Part shown: one piece after another, positions 1-63,138 of the stretch
Layout of the letters: the number at the start of each line of letters is the position of its first letter
How positions within the stretch are numbered: the first letter of the stretch is position 1
From: a virus
Taxonomy: Duplodnaviria > Caudoviricetes
Strand: one strand, 5' to 3'
DNA: 64,000 nt
Virus record (IMG/VR): IMGVR_UViG_3300031993_000037
Coordinates: 1 to 64,000 of that record
Translations under genes and position numbers: made by a program
Notes under the pieces: model-generated
What the model saw: only the letters and a program-made list of their open reading frames with translations
Told to the model about the DNA's origin: nothing
The model's database searches: none

Positions 1-973
1 GCACGCCTTTTGCCCAACAATACTGACCGTTATAGAGATAACGGTTTACCATGTGTAATGCGGATTTATAGGAGTTTGCTTTCATACAACGGCTTAAGAT
101 TTCTTTCTGAAAGTTCTTAAGACGTTTCTTTGAGAGAGAGATTTCAGTTCCACGAATCATAAAGCCCAGAAACTTGAAGAACCTGTCCTTACTGAGAACT
201 TCAACCTTTTTTGGATTGAGAACGAGTTCCTTTTCGTTTAATCTGCGTTCAAGAATTTCTTTCCCTTTTTCCCATTCATTTCCAATGATGAGAATATCAT
301 CCGAATATCGAACGTAGTAAACGTCAAGAAGTTTGATCTCCTCGTCCATTTCATAAAGAACTGCATTTGCCAGGAATGAAGCAACGGCACAACCTTGTTT
401 TAGTGACTGAAAGTGTTCAATGACTTCGTTCTGTTCATTCAGACATTTATCACATCTGTAATAACGTCTGAGCAAATCGACAACCGCAGATTTACCACAG
501 ATTCCTTCCACCTTATCAAATACTTCTTCAATAAACCGCAATGGAACACTGTCGAAATACTTTGATAAATCTGCCTTAATGCCGATTGTCTGTAGCTTGC
601 ATGACGAAATACGACTTACAACTTCTTTCACAACCTTGCCACATGACAGGTCTGTCTGATACGCTTTTGAACGTTCAGAAACCAATTCACCACAGAACTC
701 GAACAACATATCGTTGATGATAGACAGGATAATTCTGTCTAAGTTTTCATTGATGTATACAACACGAACTCCACCGTCATCTTTAGGAATACTCTGCTGA
801 TGTGGTGGAATAATGCCGTACTCACCATCTCGAATGAGAATGTAAAGTTCTGCTAATGTTTGGGGATTGCAATATCGTTCAAGTTCGTCATAAGGCATAT
901 TCTTATCAACTGCAATCTGAATAGCCTTTTCCCAACGTTCACGCTTGAACATTTCCTCTAAAAGTTTGTCCAT
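1..973 (-). CDS. Reverse transcriptase, 3'-truncated by window edge (unclassified-group type; not DGR-like)
   Basis: Manual translation from ATG 973 (SD AAGGAG) is open to the edge: MDKLLEEMF...IPKDDGGVRVVYI..DRII...KADLSKYFDSV...SLKQGCAVASFLANAVL...YYVRYSDDILII (YSDD at 296-307)...LNPKK...FKFLGF. These are the conserved RT motifs in the expected order. Missing from ORF track because no stop codon lies in the window. Confidence 0.95.
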   Translation of the reverse strand, partial: MDKLLEEMFKRERWEKAIQIAVDKNMPYDELERYCNPQTLAELYILIRDGEYGIIPPHQQSIPKDDGGVRVVYINENLDRIILSIINDMLFEFCGELVSERSKAYQTDLSCGKVVKEVVSRISSCKLQTIGIKADLSKYFDSVPLRFIEEVFDKVEGICGKSAVVDLLRRYYRCDKCLNEQNEVIEHFQSLKQGCAVASFLANAVLYEMDEEIKLLDVYYVRYSDDILIIGNEWEKGKEILERRLNEKELVLNPKKVEVLSKDRFFKFLGFMIRGTEISLSKKRLKNFQKEILSRCMKANSYKSALHMVNRYLYNGQYCWAKGV

Positions 974-1045
974 TACTTACTCCTTACTGTCATTACAGCT
1001 TCTTCAAACTTTAATTTGAAAATGGACTTAATTCTGAAAACTTAA

Positions 1046-1063
1046 AGACAAACTGAATTGTCT
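1046..1063. promoter_or_regulatory. Palindromic operator AGACAA-N6-TTGTCT, copy upstream of RT
   Basis: AGACAAACTGAATTGTCT; identical copies at 12504-12521 and 61813-61830, variants at 54831-54850 and 60634-60652. Confidence 0.7.
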
Positions 1064-1345
1064 CTAAGAAACCAACTCCAATTTGTCCGCGATGTGTTTA
1101 AGCGAACGTTTCAGATTTCCGCCGTCTGTTTCATGTGTACGCTGTTCCAAGTGACCACTTGCAATAACTTTCGGATAATCCTTATCGCAAATCTGCTGAA
1201 ACATTGCTTCAGAAAGAAACACAGAAAGTTCTACGTCTCCAGTCTTTGAAGCACCCTTAATGGTGATGTTTCCTCCGTATCCATCACCGAAATCTTTCTT
1301 ACGGACAACTTCGCCACCGAACGTCCATCCGTTCTTAAGAATCAT
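1064..1345 (-). CDS. Small OB-fold/SSB-like protein
   Basis: 93 aa; N-terminal N.W...G.V, V...GHLEQR.....G and IADKLEL resemble the SSB beta-strand pattern. Confidence 0.45.
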   Translation of the reverse strand: MILKNGWTFGGEVVRKKDFGDGYGGNITIKGASKTGDVELSVFLSEAMFQQICDKDYPKVIASGHLEQRTHETDGGNLKRSLKHIADKLELVS

Positions 1346-1557
1346 GAGACCTCCTCAAATAAAAACGGCTCTCGTTTTGAGAGCCGTTCACGTTCAATAA
1401 ATCTTTTACCTGCTTCCAACATCCGAGTCTTGTGTTCGGGTGGAATAGGGCAAATCCAAATTTCCAATGGGTAATTATTTCGTAAGCACACAAGCAAGCA
1501 ATTCCAAGCAACCTGGTACTCTTTTTTCATAACTACTTTCTTACTCCTTACCACCAA
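1342..1557 (-). CDS. Hypothetical early protein
   Basis: ORF track; overlaps neighbours in operon; start may be the internal MKKEY. Confidence 0.55.
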   Translation of the reverse strand: MVVRSKKVVMKKEYQVAWNCLLVCLRNNYPLEIWICPIPPEHKTRMLEAGKRFIERERLSKREPFLFEEVS

Positions 1558-1904
1558 TCTGAATAGATGAAGTGGTCATCTTCTTTTGCAGCGTCTACAA
1601 TTAGCTGTAATTTTTCGACAGTCTCTTTCAAGTCATCGAAGTAGTATTCGTCATATGCTTCGCTGCCGAAGAAGAAGCCTTGTGTTGTAGGCATAAGTTC
1701 TTCTGCAAGATTGTGATTTGCGAGAACCTTGTTGCAGTCTTCAATAAGGTCTTTCAGATTCTGAACTGTAACAACCCTGTCCGTGCAGTTATCATCGTCT
1801 TCAATGATATTATGACTTACAAGCCATCCACGAATCTGATTCGCCTTACGCCAATACATAACTTCTTCTTTCTCTTTGTTGTAAAGATACATATCCAATC
1901 CCAT
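1548..1904 (-). CDS. Conserved phage hypothetical protein (MGLDMYL...YWRKANQI family)
   Basis: SD AAGGAG precedes ATG 1904; motifs YWRKAN, GFFFGS..YDEYY and C-terminal Y.DWW are typical of a common phage family. Confidence 0.7.
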   Translation of the reverse strand: MGLDMYLYNKEKEEVMYWRKANQIRGWLVSHNIIEDDDNCTDRVVTVQNLKDLIEDCNKVLANHNLAEELMPTTQGFFFGSEAYDEYYFDDLKETVEKLQLIVDAAKEDDHFIYSDWW

Positions 1905-1914
1905 AGTTATCTCC

Positions 1915-2893
1915 TTAATAATTGGTATACATAACGATTTCTGCATTGTAGTGTGCCTGGTTACTATCTGGATGATTGATAGAGTAGAGTGATTTCAATT
2001 CCAAATAAATAACAAAAACACCGCCCAAACATTCAACTTCCTTTTTGATGAGTTTCATGTTTTCTTTGATGCAAAACTCATCTGTGAAAGCATCAGTACA
2101 CGAATATCTCTTATCATAATCGTGTCTGTCTTTTGGCCTCCAACCTATGCAAGGTGAACAGAAAAATATACTTGCGACTTTCATATAATCTCCTTAAAGT
2201 GGAAACTCGAATGCCCACATATCAATTATGTCTTTATCTTCTGAAGATAAAGACCCGGCAAGTTCTTCCTTAATCTGAGCAGCACGTCTTTTCTTATCAC
2301 GTTCTGCTTGTTCAAGTTCCTTTTCAATTTCAGTCATGCAACCACCTCGTCCTCTTCGTGAATACAGTTATAACTGCACCCCTCGAAATCTGTACCTGCA
2401 TATCCAACAGAACACTTTTTGTAGTGCTCACACTGAATATCCAACATCTTGTCGAAGTCTTCTTTTGTTCCACCGTTTTCAAGATAATTATTCAGGTAAT
2501 GCTGGTAACGAGTTTCTTTATAACAAGTACCAGACTCTGAAAAGAAACCTTTTACACCACCATAAGCGAAACATGAACTAAGCATACTTAAAGCCCAATA
2601 CATACTTTCAAGCAGCTTTACTTCAGACCAATCACCATTTCCGCAAAATGGATTACCATATTTTTCAAACCAAGATTGTCTTAGTTTATCTAATTGCTTT
2701 GAAGAGCAACCATTAGGAAATATTTCATGCATTTTCTGCATAACTAACTCCTTACAACTTCAGCATAAGTTCCGAAAAACTGTTTCTTCATTACAGAAAC
2801 ATCCAGCCACAATTCATTTTCAGATGAAAAAAGGTTGTCTGAAGTATAGACAACCTTTCCATTAACCCAAGATTTCAAAACGTATGATTTCAT
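1915..2893 (-). CDS. Four small early hypothetical genes (1915-2184, 2194-2337, 2334-2741, 2744-2893)
   Basis: Tightly packed ORFs with SD or ATGA coupling; two are <60 aa and were translated manually. Confidence 0.6.
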
Positions 2894-3513
2894 TTTGCAC
2901 TCCTTACAACTTCAACGCTGTCGAGGTTTTTAAGAGTTTCCAAACCAAGTCTATAAGGCTTGGTATAGAAACCGCCGGTTACATTATCATGCTCTGCAAT
3001 CATGTAAAGTTTAGTAGTTCGTGAACGTGTTCGATGTGGTTCAACTTTGATAAAAAAGTCTGAGTTCTCAGGTATCTTAAAACCACTTCCCCATTCGATA
3101 TGACCACGACCATTATGGCATTTAAGAACGTTGCCAATTTCAAAGTTGTTCTGCTTTTTCTTAGCAATGAATTCTTCACGACGCTTAAACCAGTCCTGTG
3201 CATACTGTTCGTCTTTGTAAGTGTCTTTAATCAAAGGTATCCATGAAGCTGGCATGTCATACTCATACGGCCCCATGCTCAATTCGATTTCCTTGTAGCA
3301 AAACTCATGTCGTTTACTGTCACGAGAACAAAGAACAACCATTGCGTAAACCTTGTTTGTTTCCTTGTTCTTGTAAAGACACCAAGTATGACCACCATTG
3401 CCAGACCATTTGAGAGCTTCATACTTACGTTCAGCACTTCCAAAAAATTCACGATTAAGAATATCCTTGTTCTTTTCAGAACTAGACCAATCAAACATTC
3501 CTGTCCAACCCAT
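2890..3513 (-). CDS. DUF6927-like phage/plasmid early protein
   Basis: MGWTG N-terminus and YKEI..SMGP..YD.P motif; SD AAGGAG. Confidence 0.55.
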   Translation of the reverse strand: MGWTGMFDWSSSEKNKDILNREFFGSAERKYEALKWSGNGGHTWCLYKNKETNKVYAMVVLCSRDSKRHEFCYKEIELSMGPYEYDMPASWIPLIKDTYKDEQYAQDWFKRREEFIAKKKQNNFEIGNVLKCHNGRGHIEWGSGFKIPENSDFFIKVEPHRTRSRTTKLYMIAEHDNVTGGFYTKPYRLGLETLKNLDSVEVVRSAK

Positions 3514-3523
3514 AAATTACTCC

Positions 3524-5527
3524 TTAAATTGTTGTGAGGTCATCGTGATAACCCGGAATACGTTCAACTTTAATCTTGTAGGCAGTTTTACCATAAAGAA
3601 TAAAGATTTCATTTTTGCCATAATCAACAAACTGGTCATTAACCTTGCTGAAATCTAACTGCGGATATTGAGTATTGCCAAAGAGAGTATCATAAATACG
3701 TTCTACGAAAGTTGTATTTCTTTTCATTGCAACTCCTTAGAACAAAATGTCCATAAGATAATCAGGTTCAAGACCTAAGTCGTTCATAAGAGCGTCTTCA
3801 ACGTCTTCTAAGCTTAAACCCATGATTGAGTCCTCAATGTCTGCCTTGAAGTCGTCAACTTCACGTTTAGCGTCTTCTTCAGACAATCCATCTCTACGCA
3901 TTAAAACTTCTGTGATACTGTCCATAACTACCTCACTTTGACATCCGAACTGTCAATCTGCTTTACGATAGTCCAATCCTTAAAGATATAGACTCCATTG
4001 TCATAGTTGGCACAATCAAGACGTTCAAGGCGATCAATGCCCATACTGAGTTCATAACCGCCAATCTCTTCACCGATAACCTGGCAAAGTCTTGCCCAAC
4101 CATAACAATCGTCTTCGGGTTTACGAACACCCTTTGACTTTGCAAGGTTAAGAAAGCTCTGAACATCTTCAGGACTTCCATGCCAATGAAGATAAATGCC
4201 GATTTCGTTTTTAATTAACGAGCCATTCTCTCTAAGAGCGTTTGTTGTTGTAATTACTGCTCTATTTCCCATAAAATACTCCTTGCCGATTTATTCGGCT
4301 AATTAAAGTGTTCTGTAATTATTTTCAGATGCCATTTCGACAATCTGCTTAGTACGTTTTTTAATTGGTGTTACTACGGCCTCATCTGTCATAAAGTTAT
4401 AGTCTACACGTCTAAAGTCAGTACCTTTCCACCAATTATCAGTTCCCCAATATCGAACAGTATCGCCACAAAAGTAGTAGTAAGTAAAAACATCACCGTT
4501 CAATTTGCCGTCAAATATTCCAAAAGTTTCAGAAATCATACATTCCTTGTCTTCCTGTGAAGCCTGGCAGAATGCAATCATGTGTTCTTCAACTTCTTCC
4601 TTGGAAAGATAACGTGACCAAGAATTAATTAATTTCTTCATACGCTATTCCTTGTTCTTGAAGTTGCAGTCGTCGAAATAGTCCGGTACTTCTACAACGA
4701 AAGCACCAGTTCCATTTGCATTAAGCCCGAAACAAACGTCTTCGGCGTAATCTCGACTTTCAAAGAAGAACGCCTTTTCGCCGTTGTTCCATTCACAATA
4801 CTTGTGCGGCACAACCTGGACTTTTGTAACATACTTGAAAGTATTGTCTGTGTTTAAGATTGCAATGACATAACGTACATTGCAAGTTGCCATTGTTCCA
4901 AATGTAGCCTTTTTTCTAGCCATATAAATCTCCTTACCGTACATTGACGGCCAATAAAAAAGGACTAGCCGTAAACTAGTCCTCGTTAAGTTCTCTTCGT
5001 GAAATCAATCTTTTCGGTGCTGAATCTGCAATTCTGTATTCCTTGATGTCGTGTCTAACATCTGCATAGGAATATTCCTTTTTGTCATATTCTGACAAAT
5101 CTTCCCAACAACCGCCGTAAAATCCTTGAATGACCCAAAGATAATTGTATTTGTTTTTTCTCATTTAGAACTCCTTGTCATCTTTAAGAAGACTGTCGGG
5201 AATATCATCGTTGTTACAGTCGCAGCCGACACCATGCCAATTAGTTCCCCAATGGTCTACGCAAAGCACAAAGCAGTCGAGAACATCGGAATAAGTAAAC
5301 AGAAGTCCAAAACTCTTTTCGAGGAAGCGGACATCACCTTCTGAAGCGTTAGTGATAAACCACTGATAAATTTCTGTTTCGTGTTCGCAGCCGTCTTCGT
5401 CTTCCCAAGTGAGAGAAGAACGGATATTATCCCAAACGTTCGGGTCAATACTTGGAACGTTATTGCACAACACAAAATCGTTATGCAACCAATGAACAGC
5501 GTTATAATAAGTTGTACGTCTAGTCAT
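3524..5527 (-). CDS. Seven small early hypothetical genes (3524-3727, 3737-3925, 3928-4272, 4303-4641, 4645-4923, 4976-5164, 5165-5527)
   Basis: Co-directional, abutting ORFs, most with AAGGAG; 3928 has MGNRAVI...IYLHWHG and 5165 has EIYQWFIT, both common phage families. Confidence 0.7.
4955..4983 (-). terminator. Intrinsic terminator
   Basis: AGGACTAG-tttacgg-CTAGTCCT followed by TTTTTATT on the minus strand. Confidence 0.75.
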
Positions 5528-5537
5528 AATTTACTCC

Positions 5538-6420
5538 TTACAAACCGAATTCAGCTAAAATTGCATTCAAGGATTTAGACTCCTTAAAACAAACATCATC
5601 TTCTGAAATCTGAGGTTCAGAAACCAACTTAATGAAATCTTCATGCGAAATGTATTCGCAAATTCCATCATTAACTTTTACCTGTGGCATAATAACTCCT
5701 TACGGTTCAAGACCGTTCCACAATAAAAAAGGCTTACACGAAACGAGCAAGCCCTAAACTAAACTCATAAAAACCGACTTCGCAGCTTTATGACTTGTAT
5801 AAAAATACTGTCTTACTTTACGACCCGACGAGTCGAAAATGGTAATGACAGAACCAACCAAACTTAAACGATAACCGTTGAAATCAGCGTAATAGTGCAT
5901 AAAACACCCCCTTTAATCAACTTCGGAAACCGACATTAAAATTCCCCATCGCTCGCTAAAGCGTGGAGATAAAGCAACGGCTTCTTCCTGAGAATCAGCC
6001 AAGAGATAATGAACACTTCTTGAGTAAACAGCCTTAAAGAGTTTCATAAAACACCCCCTTAAAGTTTCAATAAGATTTTCAAACCGTCAAAAAACTTTTC
6101 GATAACTGTTTTCTTTCTTGCATAGTTGCCGATAAGGTAGTAATCACCGCCGAGATAATAAGACTCTACGAAAAGATAACAACCGAAAAGCACCAAGAGA
6201 AAAACAGTCATAAAGATAGTGTAAAATAATCCTATACTCATAATTCACCGCCTTAAAATCTTGCATTCTGTCTTGCAAGTGCAATTTTCTTTTGAGTAGA
6301 CTCTAAAGCCATTGCACGCCATTTAGGTTTCATTTCTTCTTCTAAAGAAAGCCCCTTAAACTTAGCCTTAAAATTCTTTACCGCTAAGTCGCCCTGGATT
6401 TTCAATTCATTTTCTGACAT
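5538..6420 (-). CDS. Five very small early genes (5538-5690, 5754-5900, 5913-6047, 6059-6241, 6253-6420)
   Basis: Manual translation; each has an SD-like purine run; 6059-6241 has an N-terminal TM segment. Confidence 0.55.
5722..5754 (-). terminator. Intrinsic terminator
   Basis: GGCTTGC...GTAAGCC hairpin followed by TTTTTTATT on the minus strand. Confidence 0.65.
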
Positions 6421-6459
6421 AAAAACTCCTTACCGCTTAAAGCGGATTATTAAAAATCT

Positions 6460-6812
6460 AAAGTGCGAAAACGCACCCGGAAACAACCGCCCACTATTGA
6501 AAGTGGTTTTATCTTGCTATCGATAAAAGCTGCCTGCACGGTTGTATGTTGTAGTGTATAGTCCTACTTTGAAAAAGCTCCGCCCTTAAACGTGCCTTTT
6601 CCGTGCCTTCACGTTAACCGAAAACTTCGATTAAGGTTTTCTATACTTCCGAGAATGTTTCTATCTGGGTACATTCTAAAACCCTTGCTAAAACTTGCCC
6701 GGTAAAGTCAAAATTTAAAACCTGGCTTGAGTTTTTCTGCAATCGGTTTTACTCCGCATTCCGTTTTTGTTTCGGGGGAAAGTCCTACCGCATTCAATCT
6801 TTCAATGAAAAA
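6460..6812 (-). ncRNA. Candidate structured ncRNA, block B
   Basis: No ORF >=60 aa. Stems: AGAATGT/ACATTCT, GAAAAC/GTTTTC, AACGTG/CACGTT, ACAACCG/CGGTTGT enclosing TTTTATC/GATAAAA and CCACT/AGTGG, and GTGCG/CGCAC. Confidence 0.55.
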
Positions 6813-6914
6813 TTTCTCTTTTGTGGATTTCAACCCATTTCGAGTGTCGAAAAAATTAGCATTTAAAATGGTAACCCTAAAATGACGTTGAGAATTTTCA
6901 AATCAGATTTACTC

Positions 6915-6941
6915 GAATAGAAGTCTTAAACGGTATACCAA
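6915..6941. repeat. 27-bp inverted repeat, left arm (partner 7788-7814)
   Basis: GAATAGAAGTCTTAAACGGTATACCAA versus reverse complement of 7788-7814; 26/27 identical. Confidence 0.9.
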
Positions 6942-7071
6942 AAAGTTTGTGTCTTAAAACTTAAAACGCAAACCTTAAAAACGGAGTCTTAAAAGCAAAA
7001 ATCAAAAATCTAAATCCAGGTTTTAAATCTGGAAACCACTGCATTTTTAAGAATTTTGAAAATTCAAAAAA

Positions 7072-7112
7072 GCAAAAAAAAACGCTAGAGATAAAATATC
7101 CCTAGCGTTTTA
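7072..7112 (-). terminator. Intrinsic terminator after 7130 ORF
   Basis: AAAACGCTAG...CTAGCG followed by a long T run on the minus strand. Confidence 0.75.
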
Positions 7113-7129
7113 TTGGTACTCATCAGCAA

Positions 7130-7708
7130 TTAAGCCGATTTTTCTTTTTTGTTCACTATAACCAATTCTTTGTTATAACCTACTCCAAACATACCATTAA
7201 AAGTAGTTTTTAATTGGTTTACTTCACTTTCATTGATTGGGCGTACACCCTTGGAAATTTTCTGTTTGATAGTCTTTTTTACATTACTATCAAAGGCATT
7301 TTTTACTTCTACCGATTTTTCGGTAATAGCGTTTTTATCCCTAACAAGTATAGTTTTAATAAACTTGCTTTTAGGGAGTACGGCAAGAATAGGCTGATTT
7401 TGTTTGTTGTGAGATATAACAAAGCATCTATCAACCATAGTAACGGACAAACATTCAAAAAAGTTGATAACTTCGGCAAGTTTCAAAATCTTTGAATTGT
7501 CGTGGTAATCATAGTTACAACCATCCAAGGCTTCATAGTAAGTGTCACTTGAATATTCCATATTCAATACAAAGTTACAACCAATTCCAAGTTTTAAAAC
7601 AATGTTTGCAATGTCAACTATGGATTGATTTTTTTCACTATAACCACCCTTTGAATTTTTCAAAGTGTCAATTACCTTTACAGAACGGATAAAAATTGGA
7701 TTATTCAT
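7130..7708 (-). CDS. Hypothetical protein, first gene of the early transcript
   Basis: 192 aa ORF with SD AGGAG; enclosed by the 27-bp inverted repeats. Confidence 0.7.
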   Translation of the reverse strand: MNNPIFIRSVKVIDTLKNSKGGYSEKNQSIVDIANIVLKLGIGCNFVLNMEYSSDTYYEALDGCNYDYHDNSKILKLAEVINFFECLSVTMVDRCFVISHNKQNQPILAVLPKSKFIKTILVRDKNAITEKSVEVKNAFDSNVKKTIKQKISKGVRPINESEVNQLKTTFNGMFGVGYNKELVIVNKKEKSA

Positions 7709-7787
7709 ATTATTACTCCTACACGCTTAAAACGTGTTATATAGTGATTTTTGCTTATTAGGTAATTTACAACCGATTTTATATATA

Positions 7788-7814
7788 TTGGTATACCCTT
7801 TAAGACTTCTATTC
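7788..7814. repeat. 27-bp inverted repeat, right arm
   Basis: TTGGTATACCCTTTAAGACTTCTATTC. Confidence 0.9.
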
Positions 7815-8080
7815 CCTAGTTTCTACTTGGTAACTTACTAGCACGATTTTTCGGTTATCGGCTTAGACAATCCCTTGGCTTTCCGTAGTGTTTGACTTGC
7901 TTTCCCTTTCGGTACTCACCACTACTACTAAGTGTGGATAATCGGAATTACTCCCTAATTCAATAGGTATCATTACCCGTGTGGGTAACTCTTCATTCCC
8001 TAACCTTTACCCCGTCCATTTTCGGACGTGCTTTCAATCCCTTTCAATGTCAAAGAACTAGTTAGCATATCTATCTAACT
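7815..8080 (-). ncRNA. Candidate structured ncRNA/leader, block A
   Basis: Closing helix AGCACG/CGTGCT (8027-8032 with 7840-7845); stems CGTCC/GGACG, TTACCC/GGGTAA, GAATTA/TAATTC and GTAGTG/CACTAC; loop-E-like AGTA-CC-GAAA-GG-GAA at 7901-7916. Confidence 0.6.
8047..8058 (-). promoter_or_regulatory. boxA-like antitermination element
   Basis: GTTCTTTGACAT about 25 nt after the predicted start, directly behind a TAGTTAG/CTAACTA hairpin. Confidence 0.5.
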
Positions 8081-8086
8081 ATCTTT

Positions 8087-8115
8087 ATAGTATCACAATA
8101 TTAGAGATAATGCAA
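8087..8115 (-). promoter_or_regulatory. Strong sigma70-type early promoter
   Basis: TTGCAT-17 bp-TACTAT with extended TG and an upstream T-rich UP-like tract. Confidence 0.75.
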
Positions 8116-8691
8116 GAGAAAAAAGAAAAAAAATAAAAGAAAATATACAATATTAATACTACTATAAAAAATACTATATATATGTACAACCTACCCGCCC
8201 AGTAGGGAGAAGATAATCCGGCCGGGGGCTCTTGTCCTTCTCTGTGCGGAGTCAAATTTTTTCAAGGCCAAAATGACACAGTGATATGAGTAAAAATGAC
8301 ACAGTTATTATAAGAAGAATGTGTATAAAACTGAGGTATAAAGTGGGTAAAATGCATAAAAAGTGTATAAAAATTGTATATGAGTCTTTGGCAGGTCTAA
8401 AAAGGTATCGAAAATCACCGGGAAAATACAAGATTTTAAGCTATTTTTATGGTTTTACGGAAATAGTATGTATAAATATGCAGAAAGATGAGGTTTTATT
8501 GCATAAACGGCTGTTTTTATGGGGTGTATACGTTATATATATGCCTTATAGCAGTATATAGGCTTTTATAGGATAGTGAAGGAAGGGTAAGTGCGATGTA
8601 GATGATCGCTTATAGTCTGGAGGTAAAGGTTAGTGTGAGGGAGGGGTACCTTTATATATACGCGGAGAGGTTAGTGTGAAAATGGCGGAGG

Positions 8692-8892
8692 TCAATTTTT
8701 CTGAGGGAGTTCCATAATGTCCTGGGGCTGCAGGTTGAGGGCGGAGCATATCTTTCCTACAGAACCCATAGAGACGTTCTTGTCGTAGAAGAATGAGTTG
8801 ATCTGGTTTAATGAGAGACCTGTCAGTTCACTAAGCTGCTTTCTCGATATGTCGTTTTCTGCCATATACCGGCGGAGCTTTCCGAAGTTCAT
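8692..8892 (-). CDS. Cro/C1-type HTH regulator
   Basis: 66 aa; ISRKQLSELTGLS...KICSALNLQPQDIME pattern. Confidence 0.85.
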   Translation of the reverse strand: MNFGKLRRYMAENDISRKQLSELTGLSLNQINSFFYDKNVSMGSVGKICSALNLQPQDIMELPQKN

Positions 8893-9338
8893 ATGTAGTC
8901 CTTGCAGTCTGTTCCGATTACCTTCGCTATCTCCTGGACAGTAGTGAGGGCAATGTGCTTAAGTTTCTTTTTGCGGACCAGAAAGTTCTGTGCCTTATCC
9001 ATCGCCTTTGACACACCTGTAAGTGACATGCCGGCTTTACTGATGTCCTCTTCAAGTTTTTCCCAGTTTACCTTCACCATGTTCTCACCACCTCTCTCTC
9101 GTCTGATGACGGTAGTCTTGTGTTCAATTACAGTTCCGTCAGGCACATTCTCTATGACATCTTCAATACCGCATTCCAGTACTTCACATATCTTCTGAAT
9201 GGTAGTTGAGGTAAGGTTTTCCTTTCTGGAAATACATGAGCCGAGTGATGTGGCTGCAAAGCCGATTGCTACCGACAGTACATTCATCGGCATCTGCTTC
9301 TTTTCAAGTGTTCTGTATAAAGGTTCGTATGAAATCAT
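8889..9338 (-). CDS. Tandem Cro/C1-type HTH regulator (two HTH domains)
   Basis: MISYEPL...KICEVLECGIEDVIE and a second domain ...TVQEIAKVIG. Confidence 0.85.
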   Translation of the reverse strand: MISYEPLYRTLEKKQMPMNVLSVAIGFAATSLGSCISRKENLTSTTIQKICEVLECGIEDVIENVPDGTVIEHKTTVIRRERGGENMVKVNWEKLEEDISKAGMSLTGVSKAMDKAQNFLVRKKKLKHIALTTVQEIAKVIGTDCKDYI

Positions 9339-9342
9339 AATT

Positions 9343-9394
9343 TACTGTACCATTTAATTTAGAGGTTGTCAATCTCTAATATATGTGATACTAT
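9343..9394. promoter_or_regulatory. Overlapping divergent promoters
   Basis: Minus: TTGACA-17-TACAGT. Plus: TTGTCA-17-TACTAT, whose spacer ATCTCTAATAT..GTGA closely matches the 8087-8115 promoter spacer. Confidence 0.6.
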
Positions 9395-9412
9395 ATTTGT
9401 AAGGAGATTTAT

Positions 9413-9760
9413 ATGAAGAAGGGTATTTTAATTGTATTGATGATGATTATGGGTGCTCTGTGTTTTGCAGATACTATGTATGTTACTGATAAGATTTCCT
9501 GGGGTTTACAGGAAGATTTTAAGACGGTAGCAGCAGGAAAAATAAAAGGCATTTATCCATTATCTGGTGACAATTATATCATGGAAGTGGATGATGAAAA
9601 ATTTGTAATATATAAAGGTCTGATTTTTTATGATTTAGAAGATACTTATAAAAATAATATTCAGCATGTTAAATACTGGAAAATTGCGATAACAGAAGTA
9701 CACCCAAACTACTTTGTTTATACAAAGATTCTGATAAAAGAAGAAGATAATAAATTATGA
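9413..9760 (+). CDS. Exported protein with signal peptide (possible superinfection exclusion/lysogenic conversion)
   Basis: MKKGILIVLMMIMGALCFA signal peptide; AT-rich. Function is inference. Confidence 0.6.
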   Translation: MKKGILIVLMMIMGALCFADTMYVTDKISWGLQEDFKTVAAGKIKGIYPLSGDNYIMEVDDEKFVIYKGLIFYDLEDTYKNNIQHVKYWKIAITEVHPNYFVYTKILIKEEDNKL

Positions 9761-9999
9761 TCAATACCGATCCGTTTTTTAGGCTGCTCGAAGAACGTAA
9801 CCTCACCATGACGGTAGTCTCTCAATTAAGCGGTATTCCACCTAAGGACCTTGTGGCGTTCTCTAAAGGTCGTAAGATTACTGCTCACCTTGTCGGGCAG
9901 CTCTGCAGCGTTCTGAAATGTCAGCCGTGCGAGATTATAGAGTTCTCTAAAAGTGAAACAAAAGGTCACTGGGAATGGATTGCAGATAAGACAGAGTAG
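9757..9999 (+). CDS. Cro/C1-type HTH regulator
   Basis: LCSVLKCQPCEIIEF motif. Confidence 0.8.
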   Translation: MINTDPFFRLLEERNLTMTVVSQLSGIPPKDLVAFSKGRKITAHLVGQLCSVLKCQPCEIIEFSKSETKGHWEWIADKTE

Positions 10000-10215
10000 G
10001 TGTATAATGACTGTATGCTTACATTAAAGCCTTTGTTCGGCTACTTGGCATACAACAGAATCTCTGTAAAGGAACTGGCTCATAAATCCGGAGTCGGTTA
10101 TCCGGTCCTTTTATCTATGCGTAAAAACAATACCTTTAATAAAAGAAATCTTGATAAAATCTGTACCTGCCTTAATATCGGTATTAAGGATGTAATGCGT
10201 TACGAAGAAGATTAA
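10000..10215 (+). CDS. Cro/C1-type HTH regulator
   Basis: ISVKELAHKSGV...LDKICTCLNIGIKDVMRY. Confidence 0.8.
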   Translation: MYNDCMLTLKPLFGYLAYNRISVKELAHKSGVGYPVLLSMRKNNTFNKRNLDKICTCLNIGIKDVMRYEED

Positions 10216-11214
10216 TAAAGAATAAGTTCGATTTTACTGTCCGGACTGATGGACAGATCATTTATAATTGTTTTAATCTGTACGCCACAGATAAAGTCAT
10301 CTTTGTAGAAATACTCATGTCTGCCGTCGGTATAAATATCTGCACGACCGTCACGAGACCAGTCAATAAAAGAAAGATGGTTGTCAGATAAATATTTACG
10401 TATTTTTCCTTCAAGATACTCGTTCATCTTTCTGTTCAGTTCTTTTGCAGCCTTTATTTTTTCATCAAAGAAAGTCTCTTTAGGAACGGTTTCAAGTTCT
10501 GCAATAGCCTCTTTAAGTTTTTCGATGGAGACTCCACTCCAGCTTATTGTGCCGCACTGTTCCTTATCTGCTTTAGAAAAAGAGATAGGACCGTCTTCTT
10601 TTAATCCGACTTCAAGTTTATCCGAGATTACCTTTGAGATTGGTTTACCGTTCAGAAAGAAGTCATAATCTTTCATTCAGTTTTCTCCAGTTCTTCGTGA
10701 AGCTTTTTTATTTCTTTGTCACGCCAGAAGATTTTGTAGCGGAAGTAGATATTTTCAATAACGAGAAAAATTATGATACCTGGAATTATTGCAACTGCTG
10801 TCATTTTTCCACCTTCTCAAACCACTCACATCCGGCTTCTGAACAAGTCCAGTCAAGCCAATCCCATCCTTCGTGATATGGACCAAACTGTATGTAAAAG
10901 GATTTTGTATCTTTGCAGTGTTGCAATAAACCGTCCATAATAAGTGTATATCTATCCTTAAAGTTTTCCTCATACCATTTTTCTACAAACTTAAATTTGA
11001 CTTTATCCCCATGACAACACGGCGTTCCGTTTCTGTCTTGGATATAACCACCAAAACAAAGTTTATTTTCAATCTCTGGAAGAGAGTTGAGGAAAGTAAA
11101 CGCTTTATTACGGTCTTCTTGCCAGTAAGGTAGAGATGCGTCAGTGACACAACCACCAGCAATCATTATTTGCTTTTTTATCCAGTCTATAAGTTCTTTA
11201 GTTTCTTGTTTCAT
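10212..11214 (-). CDS. Hypothetical proteins (10212-10676, 10801-11214)
   Basis: ORF track; 10801 contains a YopX-like DRNG...GD.V fragment. Confidence 0.55.
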
Positions 11215-11437
11215 AAGTCTTCTCCGTTTTCCATAACAAGACCAATGCTTTCTTCAATCTCTTGAAAAGCAGCTTCGTATTCAGCGAGTTCCTTTTCGCT
11301 CATTGCGTTTCCGTGATGACACTGTTCTTTTGTTTCTGTTTTCTCTTTTTCCATTGTTTTCCTCACAACTTCGAGTTCTTCCTTTTCCTAACTGGGAAAA
11401 TAAAGGTCGATCTATATCAAACGGTATTTCTGTAAAT

Positions 11438-11989
11438 TCAATCCCCATAAGCCATCCTGTTAAACCAGACTGCTTTACCGCCACAAGATTTAAATTCCTT
11501 ACATTCATGTACATACTTGCACATTGGTACTAAAAACTCTTCAAATTCTGGATTTGTCTCAATTACAAGTTTACGAATAGTGTACATAGTCTCTTGCATT
11601 CGCTCTGACGCAGCTCCACAAAGTCTTTTATTCATTAAAGTCATAAGCGTTTCTGCATTAAGGTCTATGATTACATTTACCGGTGCGTCCTGTGGCTTTT
11701 TGTCTCTTGAAATTTCATTGTCGTTACGGTCATCACGCTGGCTTTTTACATATTTTTCAATTCCAACATGATGTCTTACAAGTTCAACGTGTAACCAATA
11801 AGGCATGTCTTCAATATAAAAAGCAAACGGTAACTTACGGATAGGAGAGTGTCTGCATCTGAGCATTTTTACTTTCCAATCATAATCTGGTGGATTTACA
11901 GCTTTTTTTCCTGCTGTAACCAATGCTCTTACTTTCGCTTTCATCCAGTCTTCTTCCGTTGGGTGTTCCCACATTTCAATTTTCATCAC
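11438..11989 (-). CDS. ThyX-like FAD-dependent thymidylate synthase family protein
   Basis: RHSPIR, ELVRHH...SQR and RLC motifs; shorter than cellular ThyX. Confidence 0.7.
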   Translation of the reverse strand: MMKIEMWEHPTEEDWMKAKVRALVTAGKKAVNPPDYDWKVKMLRCRHSPIRKLPFAFYIEDMPYWLHVELVRHHVGIEKYVKSQRDDRNDNEISRDKKPQDAPVNVIIDLNAETLMTLMNKRLCGAASERMQETMYTIRKLVIETNPEFEEFLVPMCKYVHECKEFKSCGGKAVWFNRMAYGD

Positions 11990-12446
11990 TTTACCTCTGT
12001 ATCAATTACAAAATAGATTTCTTCATTTTTACCGACAGACACTTTTAGTACATCACTAATGTTATAATGTGCATCTAAAACCTTTACACCAACAGGGTGA
12101 TTGGCCCAACCGTCATGGCAAAGTGTCTGTAATCTCGTTGTAAGCTCACCTAATGTAATAGATTTCATGCAGAAACCTCACTTCCAACAGTCAGAAGTTC
12201 AATACATCTAAGTAAGTCACCTTTTACTTCTTCCATACCATCAGTAGTCTCTGTGGCAACTTCATCTGCAATAGACATCATTACCTGTGCCAGGCGACTG
12301 TCCTTTAAGTCTGACTTTTCGCATGTTTTCTGAAGTTCATCCTTAGAATCTTTAAGTTTGCTTAGACTGTCATTAATTCTTTCAAGGTCTGTTCTAAGAA
12401 ATCTGAGGATAAAGTCTGCGTCTTTTGTGTTTAAAGTAATATCCAT
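11986..12446 (-). CDS. Two hypothetical proteins (11986-12168, 12165-12446)
   Basis: SD GGAGG supports the start at 12446 rather than 12509. Confidence 0.6.
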
Positions 12447-12503
12447 TTGTCCTCCAACTATCCGAATTATAGCCTTTGATGATTTTTCAGTTCTGTAAGT
12501 CTT

Positions 12504-12563
12504 AGACAAACTGAATTGTCTTTAAACGTTTCTTTTAATCTCAACTTTTTTTAAGTCTATCTT
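12504..12563 (+). promoter_or_regulatory. Operator palindrome (12504-12521) plus putative late promoter TTTAATCT-N16-TATCTT
   Basis: Both motifs recur elsewhere in the window; located immediately before the packaging operon. Confidence 0.65.
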
Positions 12564-12569
12564 TGAGTT

Positions 12570-12974
12570 ATGGGATATATCACACCAAAGAAAAATGAAG
12601 TTTCTCAGATGAAGAAAGTGGACCGCCATTTTCTTGACAACGCTCTTATGGATGTTATGAACGCAACGAGTAAAGACGAAGAGGGAGTTATTCGTACTAA
12701 TGCCCAGCGTCTGGCAACTTCAATTGTAAATGATGCTTTGTACGCAGAAACAGTAAAAGATCGTGCAATTATGGCAAAACTTATTCTTGAACGAGTTGGT
12801 GGAAAGCCTTCAGTTCTTGTTGATGATGAAAAAGAAGAACTCCCAGAGGTTGTATTCAGAGTTAATGCCAATGACGCACAGAAAATTAAGGCACTTAAAG
12901 AGCTGCCTGTTGATGAAGAACCGGAAGATAAGGTGGTAGTCGAAATAGACGGCGAACCAAAGATGGAGTTCTAA
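12570..12974 (+). CDS. Probable terminase small subunit
   Basis: Directly upstream of TerL; ILERVGGKP motif. Confidence 0.6.
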   Translation: MGYITPKKNEVSQMKKVDRHFLDNALMDVMNATSKDEEGVIRTNAQRLATSIVNDALYAETVKDRAIMAKLILERVGGKPSVLVDDEKEELPEVVFRVNANDAQKIKALKELPVDEEPEDKVVVEIDGEPKMEF

Positions 12975-14261
12975 ATGACAATAGAATACACACTTTCGGA
13001 AGCACAGCAAACTATCGCTTTATGTAACAAACGTTTTAGATTGGCGTGTACCGGTCGACGTTTTGGTAAAACATTCCTTGCTTATGAGGAAATGTTTCGT
13101 ATGGCAACCTCAAAAGAAGCAACAGCAAAGGGCGGATATAACATCTGGTACATAGCGAATACCGCTGATAACGCTCGCCGAATTATGTGGCAGGCATTTC
13201 TTACACAGGAGAAATATGTTCCATCTGCATATATAGCGAAGAAACATGAACAGCGAATGGTTCTAACTTTTAAGAACGGTTCAACCATTTCTGTGTTCTC
13301 CGGCGAAGAACCAGACTCACTTCGTGGTAGTTCGATTGACCTTTTAGTAATGGATGAGTGTGCGTTCGTAAAAGAAGCTGCCTGGACGACTATTTATCCG
13401 GCCCTTACTGATAAATTCTGCGAAGGAAAAGCTCTGCTTATTTCATCTCCGGACGGTTATAACTGGTTCTGGAAAAAGTATTCAGAATATATTGACGGCT
13501 CAGACCCTGATTGGGCCGTATTCCATTATACAACTCTTGACGGCGGTAATGTTGACCCTAAAGAAATTGAAAGAGCAAAGAAAACCCTTAGTAAGAAAGA
13601 GTTTAACAAGGAATACCTTGCCTCATTCGAGACAATGGCAGACCGTGTTTACGAAGATTATGACAAAGATGCAAATGATTTGAAAGAAATTGATCCAAGA
13701 TGGGGTGAGGGTGACATTCATGTAGGAATGGACTTCAATGTTCGCCCAATGACTGCAGCAATTTCTAATATTACAACAGACAAGGAAGGAAATGACATTA
13801 TCAGCTTCTTTGATGAAATTGTTACATCTGGTTTCTCAAATACACAGCAGATGTGCGACAAAATTAAGGCCCGATATCCGAAAGCAACAGTATACGTTTA
13901 TCCAGACCCTACCGGAAACAAACATCAGCCGTCAGCACCAATTGGTGTAACTGATATGTCAATTTTGCGTGATAACGGATTTATCGTATGTGCTCCATAC
14001 GCTCCTTATGCAAGTAAGGATAAGTGGAACACGGTAAATACAGCAATGTGCAGTGCTGATGGAACACGAAAAGTGTATATAAGCAAAGAAAAATGTCCGC
14101 ATTTGTCGGATTCACTCAATGGATTTGTATTCAAAGAAAACGGAGAGCCTGATAAATCTCAGGGCTTCGACCATATAACAGACGCTATGGCATACGAAAT
14201 CTGTTACAAGCTGCCAATTAAGAAAGGACGGCTTTACAGACCAAGGATGTACGGTGCTTAA
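12975..14261 (+). CDS. terL: Terminase large subunit
   Basis: Walker A GRRFGKT, LRG..Walker B LLVMDE, SSP coupling motif, nuclease GMDFN and DHITDA. Confidence 0.95.
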   Translation: MTIEYTLSEAQQTIALCNKRFRLACTGRRFGKTFLAYEEMFRMATSKEATAKGGYNIWYIANTADNARRIMWQAFLTQEKYVPSAYIAKKHEQRMVLTFKNGSTISVFSGEEPDSLRGSSIDLLVMDECAFVKEAAWTTIYPALTDKFCEGKALLISSPDGYNWFWKKYSEYIDGSDPDWAVFHYTTLDGGNVDPKEIERAKKTLSKKEFNKEYLASFETMADRVYEDYDKDANDLKEIDPRWGEGDIHVGMDFNVRPMTAAISNITTDKEGNDIISFFDEIVTSGFSNTQQMCDKIKARYPKATVYVYPDPTGNKHQPSAPIGVTDMSILRDNGFIVCAPYAPYASKDKWNTVNTAMCSADGTRKVYISKEKCPHLSDSLNGFVFKENGEPDKSQGFDHITDAMAYEICYKLPIKKGRLYRPRMYGA

Positions 14262-45176: not shown

Positions 45177-46451
45177 TTATAATTTAATGTTACTCACAAC
45201 GTTACCAAAGAGCTTTTGCTGAGCATCTGTAATTTGTTTCATATCAGACTCGATGTGATGATTTTCATAGTGCTCAAGCATTTCAATCGTCTTATGACCT
45301 GTCTGCGATTGTAAAGCTCTTTGGTTTACGTTGTCACTCATATAAGCTGCGTAGAAGTGTCTCCAGGAATGAAAACAATACTGTTTCGCTTCTTCTTTTG
45401 AAAATCCGATTTTGCATAATTGTTCACGCAAGTCTAATGCAAGTTTCTTTACATCCATTGGCTGATCTGATTTAATTCCACCCCAGAACACAAAAGAATT
45501 CATATTATCACCTACTGGATTGATAGATAAAAGCCATAGCATTTTTTGAGTAATAAGAGGGAAGGGAAAGTAAACTGTTCGTGTTTCTCCATTCTTCGGA
45601 GTCTTCAAACCTTCAAGCCTGTTATAAGAATGTTTTACATAGATGCATCCATCACCGAGGTCCTGTTTTCTTAATGCCAGTATTTCACCAGCTCTCATAC
45701 CAGTGAGCATTGCAACCAGGTTTGCTAACTGAGACCGTTCATCTTTCCATTTTGTACTGAATAATAACTCAGCAACTTCCATAGTAAGAATTTTACGTTC
45801 TTTTAGATTTGTTGAAAATGTAACTATGCCGGATGTAATATCACGTTCAAGTAACTCGTCATTAAATGCCCATCTTAAAGCAATTGAACCTGAGCGATAT
45901 ATTTTTAATTTTCTGCTATTACTTAAAGGTAGAGTATCTAAAAAAGAAACAAAATCTTTAAGTTCTCTTTTTGTAATATCTCCTAAACATTTATCCTTAA
46001 AAAATGGCTGCCAATGAGCAATAATATTTCTTTGGCTTTCTCCTATATATCCGATGCCAATATGTTTATTCATTCTGACTTTTTCTTTTAAATAAGGAGA
46101 TTTTTCAAAATCCCAGAAATCTATAAGAAACTGAATAAGAGAAATAGCACTCTCAGTTTCTTTGATGGTATAACTTTTTAATATTCCCCGTCTCGAAAGA
46201 ATATCAAGCATTGATTTTATTTCATCATCATTAAGTTCTGCAGTTTTTAATTGTTCAATCGTAGAAGCCTTTTTGATTTCTGTTTCATTATACATCGCCC
46301 AGGCTTTTGCGATTGCTTTTGATTTTACAGTTTCTTTTGTTGATTTTGCAGAGAAGTATTTAATAGAAGATTTTGTATCAGGGTTCTTAAATCTAACCTG
46401 ATAGTAAGGTGATGACTTTCTTTTAGAAAGAATAAAAGGTGTTTCAGACAT
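45177..46451 (-). CDS. int: Tyrosine integrase
   Basis: TGMRAGE, KT.N, HSWRH, GHK and catalytic Y (EHY); adjacent to attP. Confidence 0.95.
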   Translation of the reverse strand: MSETPFILSKRKSSPYYQVRFKNPDTKSSIKYFSAKSTKETVKSKAIAKAWAMYNETEIKKASTIEQLKTAELNDDEIKSMLDILSRRGILKSYTIKETESAISLIQFLIDFWDFEKSPYLKEKVRMNKHIGIGYIGESQRNIIAHWQPFFKDKCLGDITKRELKDFVSFLDTLPLSNSRKLKIYRSGSIALRWAFNDELLERDITSGIVTFSTNLKERKILTMEVAELLFSTKWKDERSQLANLVAMLTGMRAGEILALRKQDLGDGCIYVKHSYNRLEGLKTPKNGETRTVYFPFPLITQKMLWLLSINPVGDNMNSFVFWGGIKSDQPMDVKKLALDLREQLCKIGFSKEEAKQYCFHSWRHFYAAYMSDNVNQRALQSQTGHKTIEMLEHYENHHIESDMKQITDAQQKLFGNVVSNIKL

Positions 46452-61676: not shown

Positions 61677-61905
61677 GTCTTTATTCTAAAGCCTAAAAAA
61701 AAATTATTTAAAAAACTGATATTTCTAGTTTTTCTCACTAAACGAAACCTAGCACAACTAGGGGTAAAATCTAACTAACTAAGGTTAGTAAGGGATATAG
61801 TTTTATTTAAATAGACAAACTGAATTGTCTATCAACTCTCTGCGAGAAAAATTTTTCTGAATTATTCTGTACTTAAGATTTGACTAACAAAAGGAGTTTT
61901 AAATT

Positions 61906-62322
61906 ATGAGTGCAGATGTTGCTTATGATGTAAGAACTGGAAGACTTACAAAAGATGTTGAGGTAAAAGATTTGAATGGTTCATTTCTTTTATCTGGAAG
62001 TTTTGCATCCAATCGTTCTTTTAAGAAGGGTGATGAATGGCATGAAGAAGCTTCGTACTTTAATTACAAGTTGTTTGTAAAGAGTCAGAAGCAGATTGAT
62101 TATTACACTAAGTACCTTAAGAAAGGTGCTCAGATCACAATTGACGGTGTAATCAACCAGGAACATTGGGAAAAGGATGGACAGAAGCAGTCTGCATACG
62201 TTTTCTATGCAAACCGTATTATCCCAGCTTTCATATCAAAGTCTGGTGGTGAAAACTCAGGCAGCTCCGGAGTTCCTTCGTATGACCCTTCAGAAGGGTT
62301 CCCAGAAGACCCAGTCTTTTAA
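61906..62322 (+). CDS. ssb: Single-stranded DNA-binding protein
   Basis: GRLTKD, YLKKG.Q..I.G...QE.WEKDG, acidic C-terminal tail; operator palindrome upstream at 61813-61830. Confidence 0.9.
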   Translation: MSADVAYDVRTGRLTKDVEVKDLNGSFLLSGSFASNRSFKKGDEWHEEASYFNYKLFVKSQKQIDYYTKYLKKGAQITIDGVINQEHWEKDGQKQSAYVFYANRIIPAFISKSGGENSGSSGVPSYDPSEGFPEDPVF

Positions 62323-63057: not shown

Positions 63058-63138
63058 GTCAGAGTAGCACAAATGGTCTAGTGCTTTCTTTATCTCCTTA
63101 TAAAAGATTTGATGCAGGTTCGACTCCTGCCTCTGGCT
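63058..63138 (+). tRNA. tRNA-like RNA with aberrant anticodon arm (no assignable anticodon)
   Basis: Acceptor GTCAGAG/CTCTGGC, D-arm GCAC/GTGC, T-arm GCAGG-TTCGACT-CCTGC. Confidence 0.65.

Follow-up and report, generated by a model that had tools for sequence, protein, structure and literature searches.

The first 64,000 nucleotides of the IMG/VR virus record IMGVR_UViG_3300031993_000037, referred to here as the window, begin inside a gene for a reverse transcriptase (RT) that is read on the minus strand. We conclude that this gene very probably forms part of a UG27 system that is complete, operates by the mechanism published for UG27 and resides in a temperate rumen phage of ~92.5 kb; membership in the family is read from the RT, its partner genes and its RNA array, and the chemistry would be that of the homologous systems. 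The conserved partners of the RT are proteins of 139 and 322 amino acids (aa) and an eight-unit array of non-coding RNA (ncRNA), which lie at 88.9-92.1 kb of the contig. The locus is a further example of an already described phage RT family and not an enzyme of a novel type.

The definition of UG27 goes back to Mestre et al. (2022, NAR, PMC9226505), who described a class 2 UG/Abi RT that is common in gut phages of Bacteroidota and Bacillota and is associated with a putative ncRNA and with proteins of clusters 346 and 337. The family was not enriched in defence islands and a non-defence role was proposed for it (PMC9226505). Li et al. (2026, bioRxiv 10.64898/2026.09.22.753630) described arrays of ~150-nt structured units at UG27 loci. 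Five UG27 systems in E. coli yielded 50-100-nt single-stranded DNA (ssDNA) from the central hairpins of these units, and the complementary DNA (cDNA) began at the AUC of the motif AUC-N7-UANAG and ended after UUYA. The RT (YSDD), sORF and bORF were all required for the cDNA. The tested systems sit in integrated prophages, and their gene order varies (Li et al. 2026, 10.64898/2026.09.22.753630).

The reverse transcriptase

The RT looks truncated in the window because the contig begins within its gene. In what follows, coordinates marked G000 are those of the whole 96,006-bp IMG/VR contig, of which the window is the first 64 kb; unmarked coordinates up to 64,000 are those of the window, and higher ones are likewise those of the contig. 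The gene is found in two parts:

2-973, minus strand: N-terminal part of the UG27 RT, 324 codons, fingers and palm with YSDD (PADLOC RT_UG27 match and in-frame continuation)
G000 92279-92550, minus strand: last 90 codons of the RT, the in-frame continuation of the window part

A preliminary description of the window had reported an RT open reading frame (ORF) from position 973 to the edge with the motifs YSDD and KQGCAVAS. The minus-strand ORF does start with an ATG at 973 and remains open at the window edge after 324 aa, it contains VRYSDD and KQGCAVAS, and it matches Pfam RVT_1 with an E value of 9.4e-26. Against the PADLOC models the window part matches RT_UG27 with 431.6 bits (E 7.6e-130, profile positions 2-327 of 420), and the runner-up models are UG26 (1.6e-33), the generic RT (3e-30), Drt9 (4e-27) and UG17 (4e-26), followed by weak matches to CRISPR-associated (~1e-21) and retron-type (1e-12) RTs. 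The full-length RT of 414 aa (G000 92279-93523 as assembled), scored as the N-terminus of a second haplotype, B, joined to the shared C-terminus, matches RT_UG27 with 507 bits (E 9.5e-153) over profile positions 2-420 of 420. UG26 is the next model for both the window part and the full gene, at 114-121 bits and E values of 1e-33 to 1e-35. The RT is therefore not of an unclassified group, as had been supposed, since the UG27 model far outscores all other PADLOC RT models. The catalytic YSDD is intact and the 414-aa frame is unbroken across the point where the contig wraps, so that the RT is an intact class 2 UG/Abi RT of the UG27 type, and the decaying C-terminus that the preliminary description had named as a possibility is not seen.

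The identity of the RT to Bacteroidota UG27 examples is only ~46%. A close UG27 RT was found in only 2 of 50,697 GenBank phage records. The cultured Bacteroides phage BS-TP1 encodes a UG27 RT (PQ571274.1, 79357-80610) that is 47% identical over its full length and is annotated as a "tail protein". An RT that is 79% identical is encoded on a 96,948-bp, phage-sized contig (P0048) binned in a rumen NCBI metagenome-assembled genome labelled Methanobrevibacter sp.; this contig may be mis-binned, or it may give a hint about the host of the phage clade.

The accessory genes

The genes of the system are read on the minus strand in the order p62, p93, RT (414 aa), p61, sORF, HNH, bORF and the eight-unit ncRNA array. 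The preliminary description had suggested that partner genes or ncRNA arrays be sought to the left of the window, and sORF, bORF and the array were indeed found there, at the other end of the genome. The genes downstream of the RT are as follows:

G000 92094-92279, minus strand: p61
G000 91694-92113, minus strand: p139, the sORF (RTas346), 139 aa, PADLOC E 8.7e-27
G000 90892-91626 (L004 10886-11620), minus strand: HNH homing endonuclease, 244 aa, matching PADLOC homing endonucleases and a PHROG HNH family
G000 89985-90953, minus strand: p322, the bORF (RTas337), 322 aa, PADLOC E 1.1e-30

Neither p139 nor p322 has a Pfam domain, as was published for the UG27 partners. Both resemble genes of Phocaeicola coprophilus DSM 18228, a strain of the species from which Li et al. 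(2026) took the UG27 system that they modelled: p139 is 35% identical to its sORF (E 2e-23) and p322 is 27% identical to its bORF (E 2e-22), and these two genes come after the array in P. coprophilus. For a broader comparison 80 bacterial UG27 loci were fetched, and a total of 86 RT loci were searched with iterated hidden Markov models. Homologues of p139 and p322 were found in 72-74 of the 86, most of the loci that gave no match being short fragments, while p93, p61, p62 and HNH each gave matches in two.

The HNH gene is present between sORF and bORF here and in one relative (L008), and the remaining relatives lack it. It resembles a mobile element that has inserted into the operon.

The ncRNA array

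Beyond p322 there is a stretch of ~1.05 kb without genes, in which the array is located:

G000 88941-89975 (L004 8935-9969), minus strand, the strand of the RT: eight tandem, abutting ncRNA units of ~128 nt each

The motif ATC-N7-TANAG occurs here in seven exact copies on the minus strand (88982-89753) at a spacing of 126-133 nt, with an eighth copy at 89885 that has N9 in place of N7; elsewhere there are twelve scattered matches on both strands. Each unit folds into a basal stem, an internal loop with UUYA on its 5' side and AUC-N7-UANAG on its 3' side, and a central hairpin of 14-17 bp. As MAFFT alone failed to align the units, a covariance model was seeded on one unit, rebuilt from six and iterated. 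It recovers all eight units; a search of window 1-13000 with the filters switched off gave none, and neither did one of the whole window under default filters. In the alignment of 18 units from this phage and three relatives, itself fitted to the model, pairing holds for 88.6% of cells and 36 of 37 pairs show a compensatory change, against 27-43% paired cells in a control in which the partners were slid by 1-3 columns. Additionally, the 5' end of the unit forms a 4-bp pseudoknot with the loop after UANAG, which covaries as GUCA/UGAC, GCAG/CUGC, GUCG/CGAC and ACAG/CUGU. In seven units UUYA and AUC are about 47-65 nt apart; the eighth, U4, has no clear UUYA, so that its length is undefined. Orthologous units of relatives keep the scaffold, and the central hairpin is changed by compensated substitutions or wholesale. 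The array is assigned to UG27 because its motifs and architecture match the published ones.

Rfam 15 has no family for the array units, and a sub-threshold mir-17 match on one array hairpin was taken as chance. The idea that the hairpins are restriction-site decoys was considered and dropped, as counts of the 6-bp palindromes that occur in the templates gave no consistent pattern (GAGCTC 0, GGTACC 2 and CTGCAG 58, against 11 expected). Two ORF-free stretches in the leftward early block of the window (6047-7130 and 7708-8286) have neither an Rfam match (E <= 0.1) nor a UG27 unit.

The contig start and the two haplotypes

A self-comparison of the contig shows that window 1-1535 occurs again at 92551-94084 with 82% identity and that 1931-2908 occurs again at 94919-95897 with 68% identity. 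The copy is 100% identical over the first 50 nt, and identity then falls through 97, 95 and 93% to 60-80%. This gradient is explained by the assembler having run round a circle into a second haplotype, and the contig is a circular or permuted genome of ~92,550 bp followed by a 3,456-bp overhang from a related phage:

G000 92551-96006: diverged second haplotype (B), the counterpart of the first 3 kb, fused to the genome within the RT gene during assembly

The recurrence of window 1-1535 could also be read as two diverged paralogous RT modules, one in the window and one at 92.3-93.5 kb, and we consider this highly improbable in view of the decay of identity outward from the junction and of the following observations. 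The bovine gut metagenome run X1 contains 95% of the first 3 kb of the window. A contig from X1 spans L004 12381-12798 and so crosses the junction at 92550|92551. Window 1-254 contains exactly nine positions that distinguish haplotype A from haplotype B, and the X1 contig carries exactly nine window-type differences; both listed differences inside its span (L004 12696 and 12795) have the base of the window. The stretch specific to copy B has almost zero depth in X1, yet it is matched by 100%-identical contigs in another sample, X2. In two independent contigs from metagenomes, L091 and L092, the genes p189-p62-p93 are 100% identical to those of copy B, and the RTs of these contigs follow copy B up to gene nt 980 and then diverge where the contig switches haplotype. 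The RT of L092 has one difference from copy B up to nt 980 and 28 in nt 981-1244; that of L091 has 11 further differences at nt 762-852, and the sORF and bORF of L091 share only 73% identity with their counterparts in the contig studied here. The switch point is at gene nt 973, which is window position 1. Finally, a complete relative of 104 kb with terminal repeats has a single RT.

The duplication of the RT is an assembly artefact, and there is no real second RT. The copy at 92279-93523 is a chimera that has the N-terminus of phage B and the C-terminus of phage A. The contig record is hereby corrected to a wrapped circular genome with a foreign 3.4-kb overhang, in which the "truncated" RT is whole.

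The region upstream of the reverse transcriptase

The gap between p93 and the RT is 90 bp (974-1063), as had been described. It contains several short elements, and one of them recurs elsewhere in the genome:

980-985, minus strand: Shine-Dalgarno (SD) sequence AAGGAG, 7 nt before the RT ATG
987-998, minus strand: pre-SD hairpin CTGT-AATG-ACAG, CTGTAATGACAG, 4-5 bp, abutting the SD
1003-1020, no strand: second palindrome, TTCAAA-TTAAAG-TTTGAA, in the p93-RT spacer, kept in haplotypes A and B, L091 and L093
1046-1063, no strand: 18-bp palindrome AGACAAACTGAATTGTCT (AGACAA-ACTGAA-TTGTCT), right after the p93 stop codon
12504-12521, no strand: identical palindrome in the divergent gap before the terminase/structural operon with TerS and TerL (TerL 12975-14261)
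61813-61830, no strand: identical palindrome in the divergent gap between a RusA-like gene and the gene for the canonical Pfam single-stranded DNA-binding protein (SSB; 61906-62322)
G000 82871: further exact copy of the palindrome
54832 (window), G000 75319 and G000 81145: variant palindromes

The RT has its own SD, as the preliminary description stated. It was also claimed that the hairpin before this SD is the same as that before five other early genes. This holds only loosely: other early genes have small hairpins of their own that end at the SD (8 genes of the leftward early block), and these hairpins differ, the combination of CTGTnnnnACAG and the SD being found solely before the RT. Pre-SD hairpins are about two-fold enriched, occurring at 18% of SD-bearing genes compared with 8% of random 21-mers. 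Relatives keep a hairpin at the same place before the RT with its arms swapped or replaced (CTGT/ACAG, ACAG/CTGT and GAAGT/ACTTC), which argues for a functional RNA hairpin.

The 18-bp palindrome is identical before the terminase and SSB operons, as reported. With up to one mismatch it has seven matches in the window, where 0.5 are expected, and none of 100 shuffles reaches seven. A related haplotype carries a compensated form, GGACAA-N6-TTGTCC. Members of the (T)AGACAA-N6-TTGTCT(A) family lie in intergenic gaps, and many of them directly follow a stop codon or fall within divergent promoter regions. The palindrome could be an operator or an RNA hairpin, and the earlier statement that the RT is wired into the regulatory circuits of the phage is a fair reading of its sharing. 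The related statement that there is no room for an ncRNA is true of the upstream gap, to which it referred, while the template array lies downstream, past the window edge.

A terminator-like hairpin (-18 kcal/mol) followed by TTTTATTT is located at 1350-1385 on the minus strand, within the 3' end of p62 and before the SD of p93, and may be an attenuator ahead of p93-RT. In another part of the window, at 63058-63138 on the plus strand, ARAGORN predicts a tRNA-like gene whose anticodon has four bases (ctcc); it may be an artefact or an unusual tRNA.

The SSB-fold neighbour p93

Two small genes precede the RT in this phage:

1064-1345, minus strand: p93, 93 aa, SSB-type OB fold, directly upstream of the RT
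1342-1530, minus strand: p62, a small ORF located ahead of p93 in each of the seven loci that carry p93

For p62 there is no family match in Pfam, the sole library searched, and p93 has no Pfam, PHROG or PADLOC match. The p93 family is small, with 13 close clusters and, at E <= 1e-3, a set of 25 representatives. In the PDB a p93 profile gave only weak matches, all three of them to SSBs (E 0.046). An AlphaFold2 model made from a 31-row alignment has a pLDDT of 95 and the topology beta1-3, helix, beta4-5, and Foldseek places bacterial SSBs first with TM scores of 0.75-0.80, the E. coli structures 1kaw and 1sru superposing at about 2 Å root mean square deviation. The earlier suggestion of an SSB-like OB-fold gene next to the RT is upheld by this model. 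As regards membership in the SSB family, the predicted fold match is strong, there is no Pfam SSB match and p93 has no acidic C-terminal tail.

Among five close relatives found via the RT, p93 is upstream of the RT in one. All seven loci found via p93 carry p62-p93-RT-sORF-bORF. The seven include two of the B haplotype and one on the contig of L005, which was also the only contig found in IMG/VR scans with p93 alignments. It is absent from all 80 bacterial UG27 loci. Since p93 is present solely in one rumen-phage clade, it cannot be a core component of UG27 and is a clade-specific addition. Going by its modelled fold, it may be a clade-specific handler of ssDNA. An SSB-fold neighbour of the RT is mentioned neither by Mestre et al. 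(2022, PMC9226505) nor by Li et al. (2026, 10.64898/2026.09.22.753630).

A bolder possibility, which we regard as doubtful, is that the UG27 system has gained a dedicated fourth component in this clade, namely the tail-less p93 together with p62, transcribed jointly with the RT that follows them. It would cover the single-stranded stretches of the cDNA hairpins or help to deliver them, and the RT sub-operon would be gated by the operator-like palindrome of the packaging and replication operons. If true, this would tie cDNA production to the stage of infection and provide a first handle on the purpose of UG27 cDNA.

Proposed mechanism, role and alternative explanations

By homology with the tested systems, the RT would copy the central hairpin of each array unit, starting at the AUC of AUC-N7-UANAG, and synthesis would stop after UUYA. 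The array would yield eight different ssDNA hairpins, as is expected from the published start and stop motifs in its units. The preliminary description had proposed a phage-owned RT, distinct from those of introns, diversity-generating retroelements (DGRs) and retrons, that makes cDNA from a phage ncRNA; this agrees with what has been published for UG27, and the array is recovered here. The phage is probably temperate because a tyrosine integrase gene is present at 45177-46451 on the minus strand.

Several points weigh against a complete UG27 system that works in the published way. The synthesis of cDNA in this phage is put forward from homology. The array follows bORF and there is an HNH insertion, which differs from the commonest order in Bacteroidota prophages, RT-array-sORF-bORF, although the preprint reports that the order is variable. 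The pair counts of the array come from an alignment that had been fitted to the model, and this biases them towards the structure. The eight templates show no complementarity to the rest of the phage genome, where only chance 11-14-mers were found.

The idea with which the analysis started was that the RT represents a new, unclassified group and that it and the OB-fold protein next to it act together on an ncRNA yet to be discovered. It draws on the SSB fold of p93 and on the position of p93 directly before the RT in all seven loci found with it. We now hold it to be very unlikely, given that the RT scores 432-507 bits on the UG27 model, that the canonical UG27 partners and the array are present, and that p93 is missing from four of the five close relatives found via the RT as well as from the bacterial loci. 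An RT of a group II intron, a DGR or a retron would account for the generic RVT_1 match and for the weak PADLOC matches to retron-type and CRISPR-associated RTs (1e-12 to 1e-21), and it is scarcely credible when the UG27 model is better by about 100 orders of magnitude and the best 25 PADLOC matches include no DGR-type RT model. With Rfam (E <= 0.1) no intron, retron or other RNA family was found in window 1-12600 or around the full gene, including the group-II-D1D4 and domain V families at either end of the gene. The genes are tightly packed on both sides of the RT, a 10-kb self-comparison returns the haplotype copy only, and no avd-like gene or pair of template and variable repeats was seen in the ORF lists of the flanks, which were read without a dedicated search for such repeats.

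The remaining alternative concerns the role of the system and not its identity. A prophage-borne module for host defence, such as a DRT-like superinfection exclusion system, is a minority possibility: UG27 appears as a sister of the defence RTs UG26, UG17 and DRT9 in the PADLOC match list, the phage has an integrase, and the tested UG27 systems are in integrated prophages. No defence phenotype was reported for UG27 by Mestre et al. (2022) or Li et al. (2026), and Mestre et al. (PMC9226505) proposed a non-defence role. We lean to a role that serves the phage, which we would call rather probable, over one in host defence, because of the lack of defence-island enrichment, the position of the RT operon among early, lytic-type genes of the leftward block and the operator-like palindrome that it shares with them. 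Within such a role, it is favoured that the cDNAs would act as protein-binding decoys or as structured DNA effectors during infection or lysogeny.

UG27 is the only large family of RTs that is found chiefly in phages and not in their hosts, and its product is known to be short cDNA hairpins. The locus described here adds a complete and compact example from a temperate phage of the bovine gut, with eight delimited templates, a different gene order and a homing-endonuclease insertion.

Comparison with known systems

The system resembles the described UG27 systems in its YSDD RT family, in having both accessory families (346/sORF and 337/bORF) and in being phage-borne. The likeness extends to the ncRNA, which in UG27 has units of ~130-150 nt: both are tandem arrays with a basal stem, an asymmetric internal loop containing UUYA and AUC-N7-UANAG, a variable hairpin and a pseudoknot. 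It differs in its source, which is the bovine gut and not the human gut, and in its order, which is RT-p61-sORF-HNH-bORF-array in place of the common RT-array-sORF-bORF. The units are short (126-133 nt) and still keep the pseudoknot, and the pair of p62 and the SSB-fold p93 that precedes the RT is specific to the clade.

DRT9 (UG28) and DRT2 (UG2) belong to the same UG/Abi superfamily and likewise combine a stand-alone RT with a neighbouring structured ncRNA template. They serve bacterial defence, use a single ncRNA and make products that are long or concatemeric, in contrast to the template array, predicted short hairpins and two accessory proteins of the system considered here, and the RT scores far lower on their PADLOC models (Drt9 1e-27, Drt2 1e-15). 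Retrons also produce short structured ssDNA from a dedicated ncRNA by means of a dedicated RT. The present system differs from them in having a many-template array and no msr-msd, with no sign of a 2'-5' branch architecture, and retron RT models match at ~1e-12.

The predicted OB fold of p93 resembles that of E. coli SSB (1kaw/1sru), with strands beta1-3, a helix and strands beta4-5. Unlike bacterial SSBs, p93 has only 93 aa, is 10-19% identical to them, lacks a disordered acidic tail and leaves the Pfam SSB model silent. The phage encodes its separate canonical SSB, at 61906-62322, in addition to p93.

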